In this document: positions 2,497 through 60,169 of the stretch, one piece after another
Layout: every line of letters starts with the position of its first letter
Numbering within the stretch: the stretch's first letter is position 1
IMG/VR virus record: IMGVR_UViG_3300032242_000738
Coordinates: 20,220-84,219 of that record
Source of the DNA: a virus
Direction: 5' to 3' (one strand)
DNA length: 64,000 bases
Made by a program: the position numbers and the translations under genes
The notes under the pieces: model-generated
What the model was told of the DNA's origin: nothing
Databases searched by the model: none
What the model saw: the letters and a program-made list of their open reading frames with translations, nothing else

Positions 2497-4323
2497 ATGG
2501 CCATTATACAGATATCTAAAATCCAACAACGTTCAGGTAACCTTGTAGACCTGCCACAATTAGACCAAGCTCAATTGGGCTGGGCCAATGATGCTAAACG
2601 TCTTTTTATAGGAACTACTAGTCCTAATCCAAATGAAAATGTTGAAGTATTAACAGCATATTCAACTATTACCTTTAGTCAAATTTCAGGTGGTGAGGGT
2701 AATTTAAACATCTCTAATTCTCAGAATGGGCAAATATTAACTTATGTTAGTAGTACCGATACCTGGGAAAACTATACAGGAAATTCTGTCCAACTAGGTG
2801 GACATAAACTTCAGCTTGGTAATGTAGCAAATATATCCATGACCGGTGGTGCCATTGGATATGTATTAGAAACAGACGGATTGGGTAATCTAAGTTGGAC
2901 ATCTAAATCAACAATTACTGCATATATCAGTGCAGTATCAAAAGCTAATCCTGGGGTAGTAACTACCACAGTTCCTAATTTCTTTACAGCCGGTGCATTA
3001 GTAACCATTACCGATGTTGTTGGTATGACTCAGCTTAATGGTAACAGTTATTATGCGAAGATATTAACATCTAATACGTTCTCATTATATTCTGATTCTG
3101 GGTTAACTACGCCGGTTGATACAAGTGGCTATACTACATATACTAGTGGTGGTAGAGTAATTTCTTCAGTAGGAGGATCTGGATCAAGTGCGGCAGCTGG
3201 TAGTAATACCACAGTACAATTTAATGATAACAATGTTCTTCAAGGTAGTGCAGGATTTACCTTTAATAAACTATCAGGAGTTTTAACAGCACCAAATCTT
3301 GCAGGTGATGGCGGTAGATTATCAAATATTGCTGGTGCTAATATTACAGGTTCAATACCTCTTGCTACATATGCAACAACTGCAAATAGTGTAGCTGGTG
3401 CTAATGTTTCAGGTGCAGTAGCATACGCAACAACAGCTAATAATGTAGCCGGTGCTAATGTGTCAGGTCAAGTCAGTTATGCGGCTGTAGCCAATAGTGT
3501 AGCAGGAGCCAATGTTTCAGGTACAGTAGGTCTTGCTACATATGCAACAACTGCAAATAGTGTTGCTGGCGCTAATATAAGCGGCGCTGTAGGTCTTGCT
3601 ACATATGCGACAACAGCTAATAGTGTAGCCGGTGCTAATGTTTCTGGTGCAGTCAGTTATGCAACAACAGCTAATAGTGTAGCAGGTGCTAATGTTTCTG
3701 GTGCAGTTAGTTATGCAACAACCGCTAATAGTGTAGCAGGTGCGAATGTAAGTGGTACTGTAAGTAGTGCAACTACAGCAGGTACTGTAACAACCGCGGC
3801 ACAGCCAAATATCACAAGTGTTGGTACATTAACTTCATTAAATGTAAGTGGTCAAATAACGAATAATAATATTACAACGGGTGCTAGTTCAACACCGGGC
3901 AATCTTACTGGTGCTTGGACATTAAGTAGCGGTTCAACACTACAAGCCACATATGCTGACTTAGCAGAATATTATGAATCTGATAATATCTATGAACCAG
4001 GTACTGTATTAGCATTTGGTGGTGATAAAGAAGTTACCATAGCAGAAGATGCCACTACAAAAGTTGCAGGTATTGTTTCTACCAATCCAGCATATGTAAT
4101 GAATAGTGCATGTGAAGGTGAACATATTGTAGCATTAGCATTACAAGGTCGTGTTCCGTGTAAAGTACGTGGAAATATTAAAAAGGGTGATATGTTAATA
4201 AGTGCAGGATATGGCTTTGCTCGTCCAGCATCATTCCCTGTATTGGGTACAGTCATCGGTAAATCATTAGAAAACTTTGATGGTGTAGAAGGTATCATTG
4301 AAGTAGCAGTCGGCAGACTTTAA
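2497..4323 (+). CDS. tail fibre/baseplate-associated structural protein with repeats and conserved C-terminal chaperone/autoprocessing-like domain
   Basis: YATTANSVAGANVSG repeats; AVSKANPGVVT...GMTQLNG segment; C-terminal ADLAEYY...GRVPCKV...KGD...VIGK...IIEVAVGR shared with 27273..35192. Confidence 0.7.
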   Translation: MAIIQISKIQQRSGNLVDLPQLDQAQLGWANDAKRLFIGTTSPNPNENVEVLTAYSTITFSQISGGEGNLNISNSQNGQILTYVSSTDTWENYTGNSVQLGGHKLQLGNVANISMTGGAIGYVLETDGLGNLSWTSKSTITAYISAVSKANPGVVTTTVPNFFTAGALVTITDVVGMTQLNGNSYYAKILTSNTFSLYSDSGLTTPVDTSGYTTYTSGGRVISSVGGSGSSAAAGSNTTVQFNDNNVLQGSAGFTFNKLSGVLTAPNLAGDGGRLSNIAGANITGSIPLATYATTANSVAGANVSGAVAYATTANNVAGANVSGQVSYAAVANSVAGANVSGTVGLATYATTANSVAGANISGAVGLATYATTANSVAGANVSGAVSYATTANSVAGANVSGAVSYATTANSVAGANVSGTVSSATTAGTVTTAAQPNITSVGTLTSLNVSGQITNNNITTGASSTPGNLTGAWTLSSGSTLQATYADLAEYYESDNIYEPGTVLAFGGDKEVTIAEDATTKVAGIVSTNPAYVMNSACEGEHIVALALQGRVPCKVRGNIKKGDMLISAGYGFARPASFPVLGTVIGKSLENFDGVEGIIEVAVGRL

Positions 4324-9991: not shown

Positions 9992-9997
9992 ATCTAT

Positions 9998-10005
9998 TAT
10001 TTATC
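9998..10005 (-). promoter_or_regulatory. late promoter GATAAATA for the minus-strand neck operon
   Basis: TATTTATC on + strand, 6 nt from the start codon at 9991. Confidence 0.65.
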
Positions 10006-20147: not shown

Positions 20148-20786
20148 ATGGCAACAGCCTCACAATCATTGTTTAACATGACAGTAGCGTCAGATAACTC
20201 TGGCGGAAATCAGGGCTTGCTAATGCCCAAACTACAATATCGTTTTAGAGTTAATTTTCTAAACTTTGGAGTTAGTAATGCCACTAATGAATTAACTAAG
20301 CAAGTTATTGACGTAACACGCCCATCAGTTAGTTTTGGTGAAATTAACATACCAGTTTATAACTCTACTATGTATTTGGCAGGTAGACATGAATGGCAAC
20401 CACTAACGGTTAATGTTCGTGATGATGCATCCGGTAGTGTTTCAAAATTAGTTGGACAACAGTTACAGAAACAAATGGACTTTGTTGAACAAGCTTCAGC
20501 CGCAACAGGTCAAGATTATAAGTTTCAAACAAATATTGAAATACTAGACGGTGGTAACGGTACTGCTACTCCAGTTGTATTAGAAACATGGGAAGTATAT
20601 GGTTGCTTCTTGCAGGCAGCTAATTACAATAACCTAGCTTATAGTTCTAACGAAGTTGTAACAATACAATTATCAATTCGCTTTGACAATGCAATTCAAT
20701 CACCATTGAGTTCTGGAGTTGGTACAAGTGTTGGTCGTGCCTTAGGTGGTAAATCAACTACAGGTATTGGTTCTGGTCAAGCTTAA
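20148..20786 (+). CDS. tail tube protein (T4 gp19-like)
   Basis: Directly after sheath; PKLQYRFRV...RPSVSF...LAGRHEW...ILDG...ETW...IRFDNA. Confidence 0.85.
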   Translation: MATASQSLFNMTVASDNSGGNQGLLMPKLQYRFRVNFLNFGVSNATNELTKQVIDVTRPSVSFGEINIPVYNSTMYLAGRHEWQPLTVNVRDDASGSVSKLVGQQLQKQMDFVEQASAATGQDYKFQTNIEILDGGNGTATPVVLETWEVYGCFLQAANYNNLAYSSNEVVTIQLSIRFDNAIQSPLSSGVGTSVGRALGGKSTTGIGSGQA

Positions 20787-39641: not shown

Positions 39642-39676
39642 AAATATCAAGGACATATTATCCGATAAATATTTGA

Positions 39677-39910
39677 ATGGAACATCCCTTCATCTCATCA
39701 CTATCGGATAAGACATTAGAAGAACTACAAACTTCTATTTCTGAACTAACCAAAAAACTTAACTTTGCATATCGTATGCAGAATGGAGCAATGATCCATC
39801 AATTAAATATGGTAATAGAAAGTTACCGAAAAGAATACGGTCGCAAAATGGATGAGTTACTCAAAAAGCAAGGTGACCGTACACAAATTAACATTCAAAA
39901 AGAAAGCTAA
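39677..39910 (+). CDS. small hypothetical protein
   Basis: 77-aa helical ORF 5 nt after GATAAATA. Confidence 0.65.
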   Translation: MEHPFISSLSDKTLEELQTSISELTKKLNFAYRMQNGAMIHQLNMVIESYRKEYGRKMDELLKKQGDRTQINIQKES

Positions 39911-45331: not shown

Positions 45332-46114
45332 TTAACTATATAAGTTAAGCACATGTTCAATTATGCGATGACGTTGAACATCTTTTAGTTCAAACTTGCA
45401 TAACTGCAATCCCGGAATCACCCCCTTCCTCAACCTATTTTGTAAATCTAATAGCCCGTTGTCGGCTGTTTTACGATCGGCTTGTTCAATATCGCCAGTA
45501 ATTACAATTTTACTACCGACGCCGATTCTGGTCATAATCATTTTGAGTTGACCCGGGGTTGCGTTTTGTGCCTCGTCTAATACTACCCAACTATTTTTGA
45601 AATTTCGTCCTCGACAAAATGCTAGAGGTGCAATTTCCACTATCTGTTCTTCTAGCATGTGGGTTATTTCCTTTGTGGTATAGTATTCACGCAGAACGTC
45701 TAATAACGGTCTAGTCCATGGTTCCATCTTTTGGTTGATATCACCGGGTAAGAAACCGTGCTTCTCATCATCAACACCTACTGCAGGTCTGGATAATATA
45801 ATTCTATCACATTCACCATTACGCATAGCTTTAATCGCCGCTAGCATTGCTAAGTAAGTTTTACCAGTACCCGCAGGACCTGTGACTACGACAATATCTG
45901 TCTGTTCATCCAGTAGTGCGAGGATATAATTTTCTTGGTTAACTGACTTTGGGACTAGTTGTACAGGCTTTTTATTTACCCTAATTTCCCTTTGTGCTTG
46001 TGCGAAATCTATTGTTTTTGATCCATGTGTATAGAAAGTTTGATTATCTTGCTTTTTATTGTGTGAAAACCGTGTGTCTTGTGTACGTAATGCGCTAGTT
46101 TTTCTTTTGCTCAA
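45332..46114 (-). CDS. phoH: PhoH-family ATPase
   Basis: GPAGTGKTYLA, LSRPAV, GFLPGD, IAPLAFCRGRNF, LDEAQN, TRIG, GDIEQAD. Confidence 0.95.
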   Translation of the reverse strand: MSKRKTSALRTQDTRFSHNKKQDNQTFYTHGSKTIDFAQAQREIRVNKKPVQLVPKSVNQENYILALLDEQTDIVVVTGPAGTGKTYLAMLAAIKAMRNGECDRIILSRPAVGVDDEKHGFLPGDINQKMEPWTRPLLDVLREYYTTKEITHMLEEQIVEIAPLAFCRGRNFKNSWVVLDEAQNATPGQLKMIMTRIGVGSKIVITGDIEQADRKTADNGLLDLQNRLRKGVIPGLQLCKFELKDVQRHRIIEHVLNLYS

Positions 46115-53581: not shown

Positions 53582-54562
53582 ATGGCAACAAAGAAAACAA
53601 CCGAAAAGGCAGCAGAGAAACCTGCAAAAGCCGCAACAAAAACAACTGCTACTAAAGCACCAGCAAAAACAAAAGCTACTAAAGAACCTAAAACAGTTCC
53701 TGTAGAAAAGGTACAAGAAATAGCTGAACAGGCTGCACAAGAAGCTGCACAAGCTCCGGCAGCACCTTCTCCCGGACAAGTACAAGTTAACGTAGATTTT
53801 CTAAAAACTACTAAAGTACATATCGCTATGCCATGTTATGGGGGTATGCTTACCGAATCTACATTCATGAGTTTCATTAAGTGGGCCAACACAGCTCGTC
53901 AACTTGGTATTGATTGGACATTAGAAACAATGGTTAATGAATCACTTATTAGCCGAGCACGTAATACACTAACTGCTAAGTTCTTAGACATGCCAGACGC
54001 AACACACTTATTCTTTGTTGATGCTGACATTGGTTGGGAGCCATGGCACTTGTTAGTACTATTAAACCGTGACGTTGATGTTATTGGTGGATTGTACCCA
54101 ATGAAGACTATGCCAATCAAATGGGTAGTTAACGGATTTGAAGGTGCAGAAGAAGGCACTGATGGCTTACAAGAAGTAAGTAAAGCAGGTACAGGTTTCT
54201 TATTGATGAAGAAACATGTATTTGAGAAAATGAAATCTCACCCAGCTGTTAAACAGTATAAGAATGATATTGGTTTAGATCCAAAGTTTGACCAACACTT
54301 AAAGACCTATTTTGATACAGCAGTACGTCAGAATCGTTATTATAGTGAAGACTGGACATTCTGTGAAAACTGGCGTGACTTAGGTGGACGTATTTGGGTT
54401 GACAAACGTGTATTACTACGTCACAGTGGTAGTTATGTATTCTGTATGGAAAATCAGGAACATCTATTGAAAACAGTTGGACCTATGTTCCTACAAGAAC
54501 AGCAAGAAAAACATGGAATAAAGATTCTTGATAAAGATGGTAATGAAATAAAGAAACCATAA
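53582..54562 (+). CDS. GT-A-fold glycosyltransferase-like protein with Lys/Ala/Thr-rich N-tail
   Basis: IAMPCYGG, ESLISRARN, FFVDADIGW, GGLYP.K, GTGFLL, YSEDWTFC. Confidence 0.75.
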   Translation: MATKKTTEKAAEKPAKAATKTTATKAPAKTKATKEPKTVPVEKVQEIAEQAAQEAAQAPAAPSPGQVQVNVDFLKTTKVHIAMPCYGGMLTESTFMSFIKWANTARQLGIDWTLETMVNESLISRARNTLTAKFLDMPDATHLFFVDADIGWEPWHLLVLLNRDVDVIGGLYPMKTMPIKWVVNGFEGAEEGTDGLQEVSKAGTGFLLMKKHVFEKMKSHPAVKQYKNDIGLDPKFDQHLKTYFDTAVRQNRYYSEDWTFCENWRDLGGRIWVDKRVLLRHSGSYVFCMENQEHLLKTVGPMFLQEQQEKHGIKILDKDGNEIKKP

Positions 54563-54565
54563 AAC

Positions 54566-54590
54566 AAAGGCCCCGAAAGGGGCTTTTTTA
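54566..54590 (+). terminator. intrinsic terminator
   Basis: AAAGGCCCC-GAAA-GGGGCTTTTTT. Confidence 0.9.
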
Positions 54591-54607
54591 ATGGCATAAT
54601 GTCCATT

Positions 54608-54625
54608 TTGTCACATTATTGACAC
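54608..54625 (+). promoter_or_regulatory. Pho-box-like direct repeat
   Basis: TTGTCAC-ATTA-TTGACAC, 11-bp period. Confidence 0.45.
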
Positions 54626-54688
54626 ATATTATCAATTAAATAATAGTGTGCCATGGTGGCACAAAAACTAACCCACAAGGAGAGACCC

Positions 54689-55336
54689 ATGAGATTAGAA
54701 GATTTGGCCGCAAGATTAGTAGCTGTAGAAGCTAAGTTAGCCAGTTTAACTGGTGTAGCAGTTAACACAGACAATGCCACAAGTATTGAAGAATTAGATG
54801 CAAGATTATCAGTCGTTGAAGTTCAAGTTGACCAATTAATTGCAGAAAAAACAGAAAGCCACATTGATGCTATTGTTGCCGCAGTTGCAAATGATGCACC
54901 GGTTGATGTAGCAGAAGTAGTTGCATTATCACCAAGTGCTGAACATGTAGAAGCTTCTGAAATCGTTGCTGATGTTGTTACAGCACAATTAGAAGCAGAA
55001 CCTGTTGCCCACGCAGAAGTTGCTGAAATTGTTGCAGCCGCAATCTCTGCTGTTGTTACAGCAGAGCCAGAAGTTGTTGTTGACCCTGTAGCAATTACAG
55101 CCGCAATCATGGTGGCAGTTGCTGATATGCCCGCACCCGCACCTGAAGTTGCAGAAGTAGTTGCAGCCGCAGTTGCTGAAGTAATTGCTACAGCTACAGG
55201 TGTTGAAGAAGTTTCTCCTGAAGTAACACAACAAATCGCTGAAGCAGTTTCAACTCCAGCTGATCCTGCATTAGATATAATTGAAGAACGTCTAAACGTC
55301 GCAGAAGCAAAAGTTGATTTTTTATTGGGAAAGTGA
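54689..55336 (+). CDS. acidic Ala/Val/Glu-rich helical protein; probable -1 frameshift extension to 55389
   Basis: Start reassigned to 54689 after SD AAGGAG; three (L/I)xxRLxxxE heptad motifs; ends at G_GGA_AAG TGA. Confidence 0.75.
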   Translation: MRLEDLAARLVAVEAKLASLTGVAVNTDNATSIEELDARLSVVEVQVDQLIAEKTESHIDAIVAAVANDAPVDVAEVVALSPSAEHVEASEIVADVVTAQLEAEPVAHAEVAEIVAAAISAVVTAEPEVVVDPVAITAAIMVAVADMPAPAPEVAEVVAAAVAEVIATATGVEEVSPEVTQQIAEAVSTPADPALDIIEERLNVAEAKVDFLLGK

Positions 55337-55358
55337 TAACTGGCGTTAAACGCTGGTT
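55327..55358 (+). other. programmed -1 ribosomal frameshift signal
   Basis: Slippery GGGAAAG at 55327-55333 in frame G_GGA_AAG, then hairpin AACTGGCGT-TAA-ACGCTGGTT at 55338-55358. Confidence 0.7.
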
Positions 55359-55418
55359 CATAAACCTCTTTAGATCGGACACAAAATAGCGTGTCGCTGG
55401 ATTTGCGTAACCAGTACT

Positions 55419-55441
55419 AAGAGCCTAAAAGGCTCTTTTTT
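55419..55441 (+). terminator. intrinsic terminator
   Basis: AAGAGCC-TAAAA-GGCTCTTTTTT. Confidence 0.85.
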
Positions 55442-55451
55442 AATGGACTTA

Positions 55452-55469
55452 CTGTCACATATTTGTCAT
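55452..55469 (+). promoter_or_regulatory. Pho box (PhoB-binding direct repeat)
   Basis: CTGTCAC-ATAT-TTGTCAT: two TGTCA units 11 bp apart with A/T spacer, upstream of the plcP-like gene. Confidence 0.7.
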
Positions 55470-55490
55470 AATATTATAAATAAATACAAG

Positions 55491-56240
55491 ATGAAGACAT
55501 ACCGCTCTATATTTGTTAGTGATGTTCATCTTGGTACTAAAGATAGCCAAGCAGATAAGTTAAATAATTTTCTTAAACATAACACCTGTGACACATTATA
55601 TCTTGTAGGTGATATTATAGATGCATGGCGTATACAACAAAACAAATGGAGATGGAAACAAAGTCATACCAATGTAGTTCGTAGAGTATTAGGTCATGCT
55701 AAACGTGGAACTAAAGTTATATATATTGCAGGCAATCATGATGAATTCTTACGACCTATGATACCATATGGATTTAGTTTTGGTCTTATAGAGATACATA
55801 ATCAGATTGAACATATAGGTGTAGACGGTAAACATTATTTGGTAGTGCATGGTGACTTATTTGATGGTATAACACGATTAGCACCATGGTTAAGTTTTTT
55901 AGGAGATAAAGCATATGATTTCATTTTATCGTTTAATAGTAAATTCAATTGGATCCGTCATCGCATGGGTTTTGGGTACTTTAGTATTAGTAAATATCTT
56001 AAACACAAAGTAAAAAAAGCTATAGATTTTATATTTCAGTTTGAGAAAAATATTACCGCTTATTGTAAAAAGCGCGGTTTTGATGGTGTTATCGTAGGTC
56101 ATATTCACTCAGCCGAAATAAAAGAAATGGATGGCATAATCTACATGAATGATGGTGACTGGGTTGAATCGTGTACCGCATTAGTAGAACATCATGACGG
56201 TAAGTGGGAAATAATCACCTGGACTAAAGAACACGATTAA
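55491..56240 (+). CDS. plcP: calcineurin-like metallophosphoesterase, PlcP (phospholipase C)/LpxH-like
   Basis: YRSIFVSDVHLG, LYLVGDIIDAW, YIAGNHDEFLR, VHGDLFD, GHIH, NDGDWVESCTALVE; start reassigned to 55491. Confidence 0.75.
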   Translation: MKTYRSIFVSDVHLGTKDSQADKLNNFLKHNTCDTLYLVGDIIDAWRIQQNKWRWKQSHTNVVRRVLGHAKRGTKVIYIAGNHDEFLRPMIPYGFSFGLIEIHNQIEHIGVDGKHYLVVHGDLFDGITRLAPWLSFLGDKAYDFILSFNSKFNWIRHRMGFGYFSISKYLKHKVKKAIDFIFQFEKNITAYCKKRGFDGVIVGHIHSAEIKEMDGIIYMNDGDWVESCTALVEHHDGKWEIITWTKEHD

Positions 56241-56285
56241 AACACAATATATGTTCACATATTACATCGTGGGCATAAATACAAT

Positions 56286-57113
56286 ATGATGAACTTGCTA
56301 GGACTTAAACATTACCTAATTAATACTATCTACGGGTCAGATGGAAAAATATCCACAGGGAAATTTAAAAGCCTACCGATAGAAGTTAAAAATAGTATTT
56401 TACATTTTACCAATAAATGCCAATCAGATAAGTTATCCGAACGGATTTACTGGATACTAAACGATTTACAAGATTATCCTGCTAAATGTAAATACTCTGC
56501 CTGTGATAACCCACTGAGATTTAAAGGTGGTTATCAAGGAGTATTCTGTTCATATAGTTGTAATTCAAAATACCAATTGTCAGTGTTGCCGAATCCTTTT
56601 AGTGGACTATTAGGAATACAGCGTAGGAAAAATGGGATGATGAAAAAATATGGTGTAGACCATAATATGAAGACTAAAGAAAGTCTTGTTAAACGACAAC
56701 AAACTTATATTGACAACTATGGTGTTGACCATCCATTGAAATCAAAAGAGATTATAGATAGCGTAAGAAAGAAAAATGAAGATGCTGGCAGATGGACTCC
56801 TGAAGAACAAATGGAAGAATTTTATCTGTATAGACGAAAGGTATGGCACTATACTAATCAGCAACCGATTGAAACTCTGCCTAACTATACCCTACGGGGA
56901 CACGCAAGTAATAAAACCGCCTACTCATTGGATCATAGATTTTCTTGCCACGAAGGGTTTATGAAAAACATCCCTCCGGAAATAATAGGGAACATATCAA
57001 ATCTTGAGTATATACCTAACGTACAGAATTCAAGCAAGAAGACTGCTTGCTCACTAACCAAAGAAGAATTGTATGAAAGATATAACAGCTCAAATACAAA
57101 AATAACAGAATAA
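56286..57113 (+). CDS. putative free-standing HNH homing endonuclease
   Basis: CxxxxC...CSYSC, repeated YGVDH, and YSLDHRFS...IGNISNLEYIP...NSSK HNH-like motif; sits between plcP and GT2. Confidence 0.7.
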   Translation: MMNLLGLKHYLINTIYGSDGKISTGKFKSLPIEVKNSILHFTNKCQSDKLSERIYWILNDLQDYPAKCKYSACDNPLRFKGGYQGVFCSYSCNSKYQLSVLPNPFSGLLGIQRRKNGMMKKYGVDHNMKTKESLVKRQQTYIDNYGVDHPLKSKEIIDSVRKKNEDAGRWTPEEQMEEFYLYRRKVWHYTNQQPIETLPNYTLRGHASNKTAYSLDHRFSCHEGFMKNIPPEIIGNISNLEYIPNVQNSSKKTACSLTKEELYERYNSSNTKITE

Positions 57114-57140
57114 ATATAAGATAAGAATATAGTAACTACT

Positions 57141-57212
57141 ATGACAAATAAATCGCTTAGAGATTACATCAATTTAATAGAATCAAACGAGCAAGGTTTG
57201 GCGGGCAAATGA
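57141..57212 (+). CDS. 23-aa 'empty' leader+linker ORF (MTNKSLRDYINLIESNEQGLAGK), possibly a remnant
   Basis: Below ORF-track cutoff; TAAATA at 57111-57116; leader like other head-cargo proteins; ends in linker-like GAGCAAGGTTTGGCGGGC. Confidence 0.5.
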   Translation: MTNKSLRDYINLIESNEQGLAGK

Positions 57213-57224
57213 CCAACGACAATC

Positions 57225-57935
57225 ATGAAATTCAGTGATAAAATTACTATTGTTATTCCTTGCAAAAATGAAGAAAACTATATTCATCATTTATTAGAAT
57301 CACTACGTTTACAATACATAGGTGATACTAGGATTATCATTGCAGACTGTTCCACTGACAATACTAGAAAAGTCATAAAGGATAATAGTTATTCATTGAA
57401 CGTAGAAATCATTGATGGTGGTCCTGTTAGTATTGCCAAGAATAATGGTGCCAAATTAGTCACAACACCATATATACTATTCATTGATGCTGATGTACGT
57501 TTCTTTAAAAATAATGTAATTCATGATGCGGTTAAAGAAATAGAAGCTAAACGATTGGATCTTGTTGGATTGAACATTAAATCTTATGATAATGATCCAA
57601 GAGCAATGATTAGCTTTGCTATTTTTAATACAATCAATCATACATTGAAATATTTTAGTCCATTTGCTGTTGGGGCATTTATGTTAACACGCACAGACAA
57701 GTTTATGGAATATGGTGGATTTCCAGAAAAGTTTGCAACATCAGAGGACTATTTCTTATCTAGGAAATATAGCCCTAGAAAATTTAAAATTGTTAAACAT
57801 CATTTTGGTCAAGATAGCCGTAGATTTAAAAGAATGGGATATCTAGGTATGGCTAAATATCTGGTCAAGAATTTTGTCAATCGTAACAACAAACAATATT
57901 GGGATAAACTAGATTCATCTAAATATTGGAGTTGA
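57225..57935 (+). CDS. family 2 glycosyltransferase
   Basis: TIVIPCKNEE, IIADCSTDNT, AKNNGA, ILFIDAD, GGF.E...SEDY. Confidence 0.9.
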   Translation: MKFSDKITIVIPCKNEENYIHHLLESLRLQYIGDTRIIIADCSTDNTRKVIKDNSYSLNVEIIDGGPVSIAKNNGAKLVTTPYILFIDADVRFFKNNVIHDAVKEIEAKRLDLVGLNIKSYDNDPRAMISFAIFNTINHTLKYFSPFAVGAFMLTRTDKFMEYGGFPEKFATSEDYFLSRKYSPRKFKIVKHHFGQDSRRFKRMGYLGMAKYLVKNFVNRNNKQYWDKLDSSKYWS

Positions 57936-57985
57936 TAACGGTTCTTTTTATTCAGTACTAATGACTTGTTACTGATAAATACTCT

Positions 57986-60169
57986 ATGGACCTAAAAGAA
58001 CTACACTCCTTCAAATTGTCAGATGCTGTGACATTTCACGATCACCTAAATCCTAAACTATTTCGTGGTCAACATCTACAACCTGAAGTAGAACTACAAC
58101 TAAAAACAATTGCAAAAGATTTCCTACAAGAGATGGGAATACATGATTTAGATGTACGTGATATTACTATATCCGGAAGTAATGCAGCCTATAGCTATAC
58201 AGACCATAGCGACTTAGATTTACATATTCTAGTTAATATGAGTGATTTACCTAACGATGAAATATACCGTGAATTGTTTACAGCTAAAAAAGACTTATAT
58301 AATGATTCACATGATATTACTATTCACGGAATTCCAGTAGAATTATATATACAAGATGCATCAGAACCTGTAGTTAGTTTAGGTGAGTATAGTATTAAAG
58401 ATAACAAATGGTTACGTTTACCTACAAAACGTAGAGCAAACTTTGACCAAACAGCTACTAAAGCAAAATATAATAAGTTATTAGATGTAATTGAGAAAAC
58501 ACTACAAACTGATAATATAGCCAAAGTATCAAAAGTATTGAAGAAAATCAAACAATATCGTCAAGCTGGATTAGATAAAGGTGGAGAGTTTGGCCCTGAA
58601 AACTTAGCATATAAAATGTTGCGTAGCCAAGGTTATATTACAAAATTATATGATTTGCGTGATAAGTTACATAGCAAAATATTAAGTTTGAATGGTATGT
58701 ATTCTAATGTACTTGATGAAATTATAGATATGCCTCCAATTACTAGGCGTATGGATATACAATCAATGTATAATGATGTACAGACTAAACTTAAATATCA
58801 TCAGGCAACTAAGTTAACATCTATTAATTTTCCTATGAAAAATCAAGTATTTCGTGAAGATAATTATGGATATAAGTTTTTCTTATTTAACAAAGAGAAT
58901 AAACCAGTGTTTTATCTTGGTATAAGTAAGTTTCATGATGGTTACAAAACAGGTGCGGTTGCGGGTGAAAGTGAAGTTAGTGGACAGGGTTTAGGATGGA
59001 AGTTATATAAAGCAGTAAGTGATTATTTAAATGTACCTTTATATAGTGATAGCACACAAACATCTGATAGTAAGAAGGGTATTTGGCAAAAACTAATACA
59101 TAATTATCCTAAACAAGTGGTAGGATATGACCAAATATCACGTAAGGATGTACCCATTAAAAACATATATCAACCATTACCACAAGATCAGTTACGACAT
59201 GTAGATGATGATACCAGAAGAAATACATTGTTATTAAAGTTTCTACCAGCTGTAGTACAAGAAGATTTAAATGAATCATTTGGTATAGGTCCACTACAAG
59301 TAGGTGATATGTGGTTTGATATTAGAAAACATGCATTAGAGAGATTAGAAGAACGTAGGGTACCTATATCTACTGCAAAAGAATTGTTACGTAGAATTTC
59401 ATTAATGAAGAATAAAATTCAACAAATGGATGCGGGACAGGCTTTTTGGGTTCATGATCCTAGTTTAGGTATTTCAATGGGTATGAGGTTATTGGGCAGT
59501 GGTAAAGTTCAATGGGCTACTACTATTATAGGTGAACCTAGAAACCGTGATGCTAATAATCCAATAATTGATATCAATGAAGCTTTTCATAAGCCATATT
59601 CATTTAAATGGGAAAAGAGTGAGTACGGTGATTATGATGCATTAGCAAAACTACCAGACGACACAAACTTAAGCATTATGTTTAATCTAGCCGATATGTC
59701 AGATAATAACTGGGGGGTTGAATTTTATAGAAACAATAGTCAATCGGTCACCGGGGAAGGTGATGCTCAACGAGTATTTGCTACAGTACTAAATGCTATT
59801 AGTCAATTTATTAAAAAGAAAAAACCTAATACTCTATTTTTTACCACTGTAAAAGAAGAAGATCCTACTGGCAGCAGAACAAAACTATACGATAGATTAG
59901 CTCAACGATATGCTACTGGGTTAGGTTACGATTTAAAAAAAGTAGAATATCCTGAACAAATAGGATATAAGTTAACACGCAACGAACAAAAAGTAACAGA
60001 AGCCTCTGGTTATATTCCTAGCGAAAAAGAAAAGAATGACCCACGTTACAAGACAGCATTAACTGTGGATGTACATCCAGATAGTATCAAAAAGAACGCT
60101 AAATCCTTCTATTGGAAGACTAATAGAGCTGGAATTCCACCAACAGCTAATCCTTCAGGCAAAATCTAA
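57986..60169 (+). CDS. modular polyprotein: Pol-beta-type nucleotidyltransferase + GNAT-like + further modules
   Basis: ISGSNAAYSY...SDLDLHI...PVELY (GS..DxD..E); modules begin after VLDE, DLNE, DINE and KVTE; GQGLGWKLY...LYSDSTQT is GNAT-like. Confidence 0.75.
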   Translation: MDLKELHSFKLSDAVTFHDHLNPKLFRGQHLQPEVELQLKTIAKDFLQEMGIHDLDVRDITISGSNAAYSYTDHSDLDLHILVNMSDLPNDEIYRELFTAKKDLYNDSHDITIHGIPVELYIQDASEPVVSLGEYSIKDNKWLRLPTKRRANFDQTATKAKYNKLLDVIEKTLQTDNIAKVSKVLKKIKQYRQAGLDKGGEFGPENLAYKMLRSQGYITKLYDLRDKLHSKILSLNGMYSNVLDEIIDMPPITRRMDIQSMYNDVQTKLKYHQATKLTSINFPMKNQVFREDNYGYKFFLFNKENKPVFYLGISKFHDGYKTGAVAGESEVSGQGLGWKLYKAVSDYLNVPLYSDSTQTSDSKKGIWQKLIHNYPKQVVGYDQISRKDVPIKNIYQPLPQDQLRHVDDDTRRNTLLLKFLPAVVQEDLNESFGIGPLQVGDMWFDIRKHALERLEERRVPISTAKELLRRISLMKNKIQQMDAGQAFWVHDPSLGISMGMRLLGSGKVQWATTIIGEPRNRDANNPIIDINEAFHKPYSFKWEKSEYGDYDALAKLPDDTNLSIMFNLADMSDNNWGVEFYRNNSQSVTGEGDAQRVFATVLNAISQFIKKKKPNTLFFTTVKEEDPTGSRTKLYDRLAQRYATGLGYDLKKVEYPEQIGYKLTRNEQKVTEASGYIPSEKEKNDPRYKTALTVDVHPDSIKKNAKSFYWKTNRAGIPPTANPSGKI

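Follow-up and report, generated by a model that had tools for sequence, protein, structure and literature searches.

The stretch of viral DNA analyzed here, hereafter the window, comprises 64,000 nucleotides (nt), positions 20,220 to 84,219 of IMG/VR record IMGVR_UViG_3300032242_000738, and this report concerns the locus at positions 55452 to 57935 of the window, where a Pho-box-like repeat precedes the genes for a metallophosphoesterase of the PlcP type and for a family 2 glycosyltransferase (GT2). Every element that an initial annotation had listed for this locus is present at the coordinates listed for it. Read 5' to 3', the order is an intrinsic terminator, the repeat, 11 nt, a TAAATA promoter core, 4 nt, the ATG, the phosphoesterase gene, an open reading frame (ORF) of the DUF7487 family, and the GT2 gene (Table 1). 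On balance, we consider it probable that this cassette is a phage copy of a bacterial, PhoB-controlled pathway of lipid renovation in phosphate starvation, represented here by the PlcP branch of the phosphoesterases together with a GT2.

The repeat had been described as lying about 20 nt before the gene, and the ATG at 55491 is found 21 nt past it; the TAAATA reported at 55481 is likewise present. This ATG was taken as the start because an earlier one, at 55443, abuts the terminator and because the homologues align from 55491. Since only 4 nt separate TAAATA from the ATG, the phosphoesterase mRNA is probably nearly leaderless. TAAATA also stands 4 to 6 nt before an ATG, without a Shine-Dalgarno sequence, at 56276 to 56288, 57976 to 57988, 39667 to 39679, and about 9992 to 10003 (minus strand), and 8 of 94 ORFs have TAAATA within 12 nt of their start. 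Such starts suggest leaderless late mRNAs; other late genes have a leader of 13 to 28 nt that carries AGGAG.

The phosphoesterase and its relatives

The phosphoesterase is calcineurin-like (PF00149, 46.1 bits). The PlcP-type motifs noted for it initially lie at residues 10 to 15 (SDVHLG), 81 to 88 (GNHDEFLR), and 222 to 233 (GDWVESCTALVE); in an alignment of 17 sequences their residues are invariant or nearly so, and the metal-binding residues D11, H13, D41, N82, H83, H120, H204, and H206 are invariant. Against the LpxH equivalog models the protein scored 47.0 bits (NF003743; cutoff, 134) and 35.2 bits (TIGR01854; cutoff, 190.35). A true LpxH above the TIGR01854 cutoff was found in 27 of the 31 gammaproteobacterial genomes sampled, with 177 to 344 bits in the tabulated rows, and second paralogues in these genomes reached 32 to 45 bits on the LpxH model; one Photobacterium genome carries LpxH plus a relative 42% identical to the window phosphoesterase. 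The window protein reads GNHD where the aligned solved LpxH chains read GNRD, the variant of the GNH(D/E) motif that is characteristic of LpxH.

A phylogeny against LpxH, one of the checks proposed with the initial annotation, was computed by maximum likelihood from 70 rows, i.e., the window protein, 23 phage representatives, 33 loci from genome contigs, the phages Mosig and S-SRM01, and 11 LpxH sequences; phage rows more than 93% alike and rows of fewer than 200 residues were left out. A fully supported branch (100%), 3.17 changes per column in length, parted the 11 LpxH sequences from the 59 remaining rows. The window phosphoesterase fell within a 29-row phage clade (99% support) that is nested among cellular proteins 50 to 60% identical to it, the nearest neighbors of the clade being proteins of Robiginitomaculum (60% identity), a Holophagaceae metagenome-assembled genome (MAG), and Pelagibacter phage Mosig. 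The enzyme is thus placed outside LpxH and is grouped with cellular proteins of plcP-agt operons, the PlcP-type group of this tree being defined by the operon context of the homologues and not by assayed proteins. Cellular relatives at 50 to 56% identity are common. Four cellular homologues are followed directly by a family 4 glycosyltransferase (GT4) gene (loci L006, L007, L010, and L019), in L018 the phosphoesterase is fused to a GT4, and in L024 it is followed by OlsB- and OlsA-like acyltransferases, a pairing seen in this analysis and not taken from the literature.

The AlphaFold model of the phosphoesterase has a mean predicted local distance difference test (pLDDT) score of 78.9. The 25 best fold matches listed from the PDB are all LpxH (E of 5e-11 to 3e-9; 16 to 20% identity), with the next family at 5e-7. 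Counts for related phage loci given below refer to the best 80 of at least 594 IMG/VR stretches, at 86 to 92% identity; within the phosphoesterase gene, the median nucleotide identity of these loci is 80%. The median ratio of nonsynonymous to synonymous substitution rates (dN/dS) against relatives was 0.039 for the phosphoesterase (50 of 80 pairs usable) and 0.078 for the GT2 (44 of 59 pairs usable), the other pairs being saturated; both genes are therefore under strong purifying selection. Judged by family models, tree, and fold, the window protein is of LpxH architecture and belongs to the PlcP branch of the LpxH-like metallophosphoesterases. As such, the enzyme most likely cleaves host phospholipids to diacylglycerol and a phospho-head group.

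Recent capture of the gene from SAR11 was considered and rejected: homologues at least 80% identical are all viral or belong to odd MAG contigs inside the phage clade, and the best cellular homologue is 60% identical. The phage-clade cassette is present at 74 to 85% identity on contigs of this kind (L001 to L005 and L035), which were binned as Haliscomenobacter, Polynucleobacter, Fischerella, Gammaproteobacteria, and Chitinophagia; the ones of sufficient length for the tree, L001 to L005, fall within the phage clade and so are probably of phage origin, misbinned with bacteria. Assignment of a host from the MAG bin labels of homologue contigs was abandoned, as the labels contradict one another. 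The Mosig homologue (L117, 2903 to 4738; 47.5% identity) is annotated as a UDP-2,3-diacylglucosamine hydrolase and is divergent from a putative phosphate ABC transporter gene, and the region between the two holds a TTAACA-N5-TTAACA direct repeat (about 3926 to 3942) and a TAAATA. By term search, the text of the Mosig genome announcement (PMC7892664) does not mention this gene, and that of a paper on Burkholderia cenocepacia PlcP (PMC13691135) holds no motif or LpxH comparison.

The glycosyltransferase partner and the gene between them

Two bacterial glycosyltransferases serve as references for the downstream gene: Agt, taken to be a GT4, and Pgt, a GT21. The window GT2 matches PF00535 with 77.6 bits, gives no GT4 match, and carries a D-x-D motif at D88/D90; its structural model has a pLDDT of 95.5. 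On the GT21 model PF13506 it scored 24.6 bits, marginally over the cutoff of 21.7, and among six distant GT2 relatives three reached 35 to 42 bits, a fourth had 21.1, and two did not match. An Atlas neighbor of the GT2 is a cluster annotated as carotenoid glycosyltransferase.

The initial annotation had named the GT2 as the partner of the phosphoesterase, and the related loci agree with this: a GT2 gene directly follows the phosphoesterase gene on the same strand in 63 of 80, with gaps of -2 to 4 nt in 32 loci and of 119 to 168 nt in 31. In 14 loci this position is taken by an Agt-like GT4 (about 335 aa), and the remaining 3 end before it. These phage GT4 proteins are 36 to 45% identical to the GT4 proteins encoded downstream of the cellular homologues. 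The exchange of GT4, the classical partner, for GT2 at a single position provides the strongest argument for an equivalent role of the GT2. We propose that the GT2 most likely glycosylates diacylglycerol to a phosphorus-free glycolipid. GT2 enzymes are inverting, so the glycolipid would probably be beta-linked, and such a product may be a lipid that the host itself does not make. Both versions of the cassette occur in one 524-kb viral record (G306), at L133 (C1:82411-85444), where the order is phosphoesterase, GT4, box, and acidic gene (described below), and at L137 (C1:183478-186511), where it is box, phosphoesterase, and GT2; the record may carry both genuinely, or its assembly may be chimeric.

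In the window the GT2 gene follows the phosphoesterase gene after an insertion of 984 nt, as expected from the initial annotation, which had found the GT2 once an HNH segment was skipped; the GT2 gene and the insertion are confirmed, whereas the HNH assignment is not, as no family model bears it out. The inserted ORF matches DUF7487 with 44.7 bits and, weakly, the homing endonuclease family PHROG 3339 (E of 1e-8), and none of the 80 related loci has it. Homology with the closest relatives breaks off past the codons for ...TWTKE and picks up again where the GT2 gene begins, so that a stretch of about 168 nt coding for a C-terminal tail in these relatives is represented by the 984 nt in the window. 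Metagenome contigs from four runs of two studies, derived from relatives at least 85% alike, join positions of about 56192 to 56231 directly to 57221 to 57236; because these joints skip the insertion, it is polymorphic in the lineage. The probable source run covered the inserted segment at a depth of 22.8; coverage was about 5.6 in another study and almost nil in two runs. From its family matches and breakpoints, the ORF is identified as a free-standing homing-endonuclease-like gene that landed between the two cassette genes. In close relatives (L041, L046, and L064, 8748 to 8915), the enzyme is longer by 30 to 45 low-complexity residues, at 281 to 295 aa; since this tail is missing both in the window, where the gene ends at 56238 to 56240, and in relatives with abutting genes, it appears to be dispensable.

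The composite site and the genes behind it

Of the 14 specified positions of the Pho-box consensus CTGTCATNNNNCTGTCAT, as quoted in PMC8528852, the repeat matches 12, and its period is 11 bp; it is the sole match in the window with two or fewer mismatches. We defined a composite site as the repeat, with at most one mismatch, followed by TAAATA exactly 11 nt downstream. The 84-kb genome has two composite sites, whereas 100 shuffles averaged 0.03 and never exceeded 1; the repeat alone, at the same stringency, occurs 11 times against 9.8 expected. Both composite copies stand just after terminators, one before the phosphoesterase gene and the other before a gene for an acidic protein.

The same specificity is seen in the relatives. 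Across 1.0 Mb of related loci we counted 63 strict repeats, of which 34 precede the phosphoesterase gene, 15 the acidic gene, and 9 pstS (six with ATG starts and three with GTG); 2 precede some 85 nt that contain no ORF and run into a terminator, and 3 are on the other strand without TAAATA. Counted by locus, the site stands before pstS in 8 related loci, and it does so in one complete genome as well. Phage PstS proteins scored 386 and 392 bits on the equivalog model (cutoff, 339). TAAATA is exactly 11 nt from the repeat in 49 of the 63, and most of the others are the upstream member of a three-repeat array. Among 38 distinct site sequences the half-sites, which read TGT(C/A)A(C/T) and are 11 bp apart, are conserved and the spacing is fixed, with variable spacers. 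Upstream of the phosphoesterase gene, the box is found as 34 strict copies plus 5 with one mismatch among the 80 loci, in flanks that are otherwise different. Four near-complete relatives (345 to 525 kb) contain 7 composite sites, 1 or 2 per genome, against 0 for a reversed control pattern, and these precede only plcP (3), the acidic gene (3), and pstS (1). Because the site is this rare and gene specific, we ruled out a general class of phage promoters.

No PhoB-type winged-helix domain (PF00486) was found in the four near-complete related phage genomes, while a control search was positive in 10 of 14 bacteria; a host factor is therefore the simplest reader of the site, and its sharing with pstS points to PhoB. 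Pho-box-like repeats also stand upstream of two cellular homologues (L010 and L034). As to the core, (G)ATAAATA occurs upstream of structural genes, and early genes carry TATAAT. By the Escherichia coli rule, the Pho box replaces the -35 element, about 10 bp upstream of the -10. The initial annotation had proposed dual control by the box and TAAATA; with a late-type core at a fixed 11 nt, one composite promoter fits at least as well. Its proposal that the box is a regulatory site agrees with the conservation described above and with the placement of the site in relatives before pstS, the archetypal Pho gene. The protein most likely to bind the repeat is phosphorylated PhoB of the host. Directly after a boxed pstS, one related locus (L135, 2649 to 3032) carries an ORF with a signal peptide and a porin-like start, which may encode a phosphate porin.

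The second composite site of the window lies upstream of the gene for an acidic protein rich in Ala, Val, and Glu (Table 1), an arrangement shared by the acidic-gene homologues at the 15 strict sites counted above and in three of the four near-complete genomes. Searches of Pfam, NCBIfam, and PHROG with this protein returned no family, and Atlas returned only viral hypothetical clusters. The gene is phage-only, and only one target of the site is more frequent in relatives; judged by its upstream site, it is the third member of the box-controlled gene set. Its transcription unit ends in two small hairpins and a terminator, part of a structured element of about 45 nt that we found in 23 distinct copies at the 3' ends of box-controlled genes, usually with a terminator next to it. 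Hairpin 1 shows compensatory changes in three of four pairs, with no pair broken in 18 sequences, and hairpin 2 has an invariant CTGG...CCAG stem. Rfam, searched over 54400 to 58100, gave three sub-threshold, implausible matches only and none for the structured element. Other copies are found after pstS (L049, L095, and L104), after GT2 (L046), and after GT4 (L100, L101, and L115), and in L098 and L099 (7895 to 7973 of the latter) the element stands alone behind a box promoter. It is possibly a small RNA.

The source record is a linear virus of 84,219 bp with a CheckV completeness estimate of 24%. The window also encodes a tail sheath, a tail tube, a clamp loader, PhoH, and a large ATP-dependent protease; from these genes and from the genome sizes of the near-complete relatives, 345 to 525 kb, we conclude that the window is part of an uncultured jumbo myophage. 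The phage is a lake phage of a freshwater lineage. The phoH gene that had been noted in the window is indeed there, and a scan of the 84-kb genome placed no composite box at it. Megablast of positions 54000 to 59000 against GenBank phages gave zero matches, and no RNA runs containing positions 54500 to 58000 were listed.

TABLE 1 Positions of the cassette and of associated features in the window
Feature	Position	Strand	Evidence or remark
Pho-box-like direct repeat CTGTCAC-ATAT-TTGTCAT, 11-bp period	55452-55469 (CTGTCAC, 55452-55458; ATAT, 55459-55462; TTGTCAT, 55463-55469)	+	Pattern scan; conserved in relatives
TAAATA promoter core, phage late-type -10	55481-55486	+	11 nt after repeat, 4 nt before ATG
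PlcP-type metallophosphoesterase, LpxH-like fold, 249 aa	55491-56240	+	PF00149, motifs, tree, fold matches
GT2 glycosyltransferase, GT-A fold, 236 aa	57225-57935	+	PF00535, synteny, model
Inserted or replaced segment with DUF7487 ORF	56241-57224	+	Alignment breakpoints, metagenome joints
DUF7487 homing-endonuclease-like ORF, 275 aa	56286-57113	+	DUF7487, PHROG 3339
Intrinsic terminator, hairpin and T run	55419-55437	+	Upstream of box
Second composite site, TGTCAC-N5-TGACAC (1 mismatch), 11 nt, TAAATA	54609-54642	+	Upstream of acidic gene
Acidic Ala/Val/Glu-rich protein, 227 aa from first ATG	54653-55336	+	Homologues start at Met encoded at 54689
Two small hairpins, then intrinsic terminator	55376-55443	+	3' end of acidic-protein transcription unit
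phoH-like gene	45332-46114	-	Context only; no composite box nearby

Alternative readings, proposed pathway, and comparison with known systems

Several of our observations weigh against a PhoB-controlled PlcP pathway. The tree contains none of the experimentally characterized PlcP proteins (SMc00171, MED193_17359, PB7211_983, and PA3219), and membership in the PlcP branch therefore rests on homologues defined by context; the predicted lid of the enzyme, the inserted helical region of residues 126 to 170, has low confidence in the model. The GT2 is neither an Agt (GT4) nor a clear Pgt (GT21), exceeding the PF13506 cutoff by only 2.9 bits, and its fold matches in the PDB are generic GT-A enzymes for teichoic acid, polysaccharide, or small molecules. 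As for the site, 42 of 100 shuffled windows gave at least one equal match to the Pho-box consensus, with the same outcome for a looser pattern, so the box alone is no better than chance. A box with at most one mismatch is absent within 400 nt of the gene in 40 of the 80 relatives, and in only 3 of these 40 does a pstS with a box stand about 1.14 kb upstream in the same orientation. The sigma-70 -10 hexamer ends in T, which TAAATA does not, and TAAATA is a poor sigma-70 element. PhoB of E. coli acts through region 4 of sigma-70, which sits uneasily with a late-type core. Predicted Pho boxes in phage genomes are, moreover, described in PMC10976474 as unreliable and as often failing in experiments.

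The databases themselves offer a different function, that of an LpxH-type UDP-2,3-diacylglucosamine hydrolase, with which the pair would modify the synthesis of lipid A or lipopolysaccharide (LPS): the Joint Genome Institute (JGI) label of close relatives is "UDP-2,3-diacylglucosamine pyrophosphatase LpxH," GenBank phage records use the same name, the nearest solved structure is LpxH, and a table of a Lake Baikal viral metatranscriptome puts lpxH under LPS biosynthesis (PMC9611531). Set against these labels are scores of 35 to 47 bits at cutoffs of 134 to 190, the bimodal scores within gammaproteobacterial genomes, the long and fully supported split of the tree, the 16 to 20% identity to solved LpxH, and GNHD in place of GNRD. 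In addition, of 301 genomes sampled from the class of G001 (source locus L019, from Sandarakinorhabdus), 108 have a homologue (E of 1e-10 or less); one of these matches is in an unpublished genome (G245), on which nothing else here depends. This class uses LpxI in place of LpxH. An LpxH function is accordingly very improbable in our estimate. Harder to dismiss is the suggestion that the phosphoesterase does cleave phospholipids but that the acceptor of the GT2 is not diacylglycerol and is instead an envelope polymer, a polyprenol-linked sugar, or another small molecule, in which case the GT2 might, for instance, alter the cell surface during infection. The PHROG matches of the GT2 (GtrB-like O-antigen conversion and other glycosyltransferases, E of 2e-6 and weaker) and its best PDB folds (TarS, TarP, WrtF, AvpGT, and a dolichyl-type mannosyltransferase) lean this way; its best NCBIfam match is far under the cutoff, and a GT2 of this type stands beside none of the cellular plcP loci fetched. 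A lipid acceptor is nevertheless favored by the tight coupling of the genes in 63 of 80 loci, by the Agt-like GT4 at exactly the GT2 position in 14, by PF13506 matches above cutoff in the window GT2 and in three of six distant relatives, and by Atlas neighbors that include a cluster for glycosylation of carotenoid, a lipid, and the conserved basic C-terminal helix region of the model (R199 and R200) would suit binding at a membrane interface. We judge another acceptor to be unlikely, though it deserves serious attention.

The regulatory site can be questioned in two ways. It might be a chance match in AT-rich intergenic DNA, as the shuffled windows and the near-expected number of repeats with at most one mismatch, 11 against 9.8, would allow. 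Chance has little to say, however, about TAAATA at +11 twice against 0.03 expected, about 38 distinct sites that keep their half-sites and spacing while their spacers vary, or about genome-wide sites that precede three kinds of gene only with a reversed control of 0; nor are the related loci near-identical copies, given their median nucleotide identity of 80% in the gene. We find this explanation scarcely credible. Alternatively, the repeat is a real regulatory site whose reader is something other than host PhoB. Candidates are a phage activator or repressor, or another response regulator of the host, coordinating a small set of phage genes at TAAATA promoters; a regulator of a different fold, from phage or host, may likewise be the reader. 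Consistent with this, the site is fused at fixed spacing to a phage late-type core and not to a sigma-70 -10, many half-sites read TGTAAY instead of TGTCAY, one of the targets, the gene for the acidic 227-aa protein, is without a known phosphate link, and PF00486 is the one DNA-binding family with which the phage genomes were searched. PhoB is favored in turn by the 12 of 14 match to its consensus with the 11-bp period, by similar boxes at cellular homologues, by the absence of an OmpR/PhoB-type domain from the four near-complete relatives, and by targets that include pstS, archetypal for the Pho regulon, and plcP, which phosphate starvation induces in bacteria (PMC4796936 and PMC8528852). Another reader seems to us distinctly unlikely.

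Preferring, then, the PhoB-controlled PlcP pathway, we propose the following course of events. Transcription would begin past the terminator, at the composite promoter, when phosphorylated PhoB of a phosphate-starved host binds the repeat and brings RNA polymerase to the TAAATA core. The nearly leaderless mRNA would yield the PlcP-type enzyme, which would cut phospholipids to diacylglycerol and a phospho-head group, and the GT2 would turn the diacylglycerol into glycolipid, so that the membrane stays intact. The phosphate would be recovered by host phosphatases, with uptake boosted in relatives by phage PstS, and might then supply phage DNA synthesis, as the initial annotation supposed. The cassette, the phage pstS of relatives, the acidic 227-aa protein, and the structured RNA element would be switched on together. 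At some point the homing-endonuclease-like gene would have landed between the pair, removing the dispensable C-terminal tail of the enzyme. The initial annotation had read the locus as PhoB-dependent remodeling of membrane lipid by a phage; our results support the identity of the genes and the regulatory logic, but not yet the membrane chemistry.

The closest known counterparts are the PhoB-regulated PlcP-Agt operons of bacteria, i.e., SMc00171 of Sinorhizobium meliloti, MED193_17359 of Phaeobacter sp. MED193, PB7211_983/PB7211_960 of Pelagibacter HTCC7211, and PA3219/PA3218 of Pseudomonas aeruginosa (PMC4796936 and PMC8528852); plcP is described by Sebastian et al. (PMC4796936) as adjoining agt, other glycosyltransferase genes, or btaAB. 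The window cassette resembles these operons in having an LpxH-like metallophosphoesterase followed by a same-strand glycosyltransferase with a Pho-box-like repeat upstream, and cellular homologues 50 to 60% identical sit in plcP-GT4 operons, while 14 of 80 sister phages have the version with an Agt-like GT4; the comparison runs through these homologues. It differs in being encoded by a virus, in having as partner a small GT2 (GT-A) and not a GT4 Agt, in the extra members of its gene set, in the joining of the box to a phage TAAATA core with the start 4 nt on, and in the splitting of the pair by a homing-endonuclease-like gene. With LpxH, its nearest solved structure, the enzyme shares the fold class and a calcineurin-like core with an inserted helical region; it is set apart by 16 to 20% identity in fold matches, scores far below the family cutoffs, a separate clade, and GNHD versus GNRD. 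Pgt, a processive glycosyltransferase that adjoins plcP in some bacteria (types 3 and 5 in PMC4796936, citing Devers et al. 2011), is likewise a GT-A-type enzyme encoded downstream of plcP, and the GT21 Pfam cutoff is passed marginally by the window GT2 and clearly by three of six distant relatives; the GT21 match of the window GT2 is nonetheless weak, and the likeness comes from a family model.

Control of cyanophage pstS by host PhoBR has been established by experiment, as for pstS of P-SSM2, and genes of S-PM2d were tested by electrophoretic mobility shift assay (PMC10976474). The window shares with these phages the presence of phosphate-stress genes behind putative Pho boxes of host type, with pstS a target in relatives. 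Unlike the cyanobacterial consensus PyTTAAPyPy(T/A), the repeat is of the proteobacterial CTGTCAT type; its cargo is a predicted phospholipase C, a glycosyltransferase, and an acidic protein, and the carrier is a freshwater jumbo phage. The DUF7487 ORF resembles the free-standing homing endonuclease genes of T4-like phages in its place between two conserved genes, its family match, its absence from 80 of 80 related loci, and its polymorphism in metagenomes; its nuclease function is predicted from sequence. Full-text searches, with supplementary files outside their scope, found no paper on a phage PlcP, and the searched text of a paper on phosphorus genes of terrestrial phages (PMC10987575) mentions neither plcP nor any phospholipase or lipid; Supplementary Table S2 of PMC4796936 may already list partners of the GT2 type for bacterial plcP. 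New here are the split of the pair by a homing-endonuclease-like gene, the gene specificity of the site across whole genomes, the third target (the acidic gene), and the structured RNA element.

Implications for freshwater giant phages

Relatives of this abundant gene are encoded by at least 594 IMG/VR stretches, and among metagenome candidates all 8,000 scored matched the gene, with 120 listed at 85 to 92% identity. Because the gene is labeled lpxH, a gene of LPS biosynthesis, in databases and in at least one virome survey (PMC9611531, in the table cited above), viral inventories file it under the wrong pathway.

The DNA of a jumbo phage demands much phosphorus, and membrane phospholipids typically hold about 20% of the phosphorus of heterotrophic bacteria, according to PMC4796936. 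A bolder reading, which we put forward tentatively and with some doubt, is that a widespread lineage of freshwater giant phages runs a small phosphate-starvation regulon of its own through host PhoB acting at a T4-type TAAATA core, stripping phosphorus from the membrane for genomes of about 350 kb while a GT2 glycolipid patches it. The members of such a regulon would be pstS, plcP with GT2 or GT4, the gene for the acidic 227-aa protein, and the structured RNA element. If this is true, an activator that normally contacts sigma-70 would be operating at the late-type core of a phage, and promoter control of this mode would be new. The fixed layout from box to TAAATA offers a clean, testable case of capture of a host regulator by phages outside the cyanophages. 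If phages do induce a pathway of phospholipase C and glycolipid synthesis in hosts short of phosphate, lipid remodeling would join pstS and phoA as a viral auxiliary function, and part of the signal of non-phosphorus lipids in phosphate-poor lakes could be driven by viruses.

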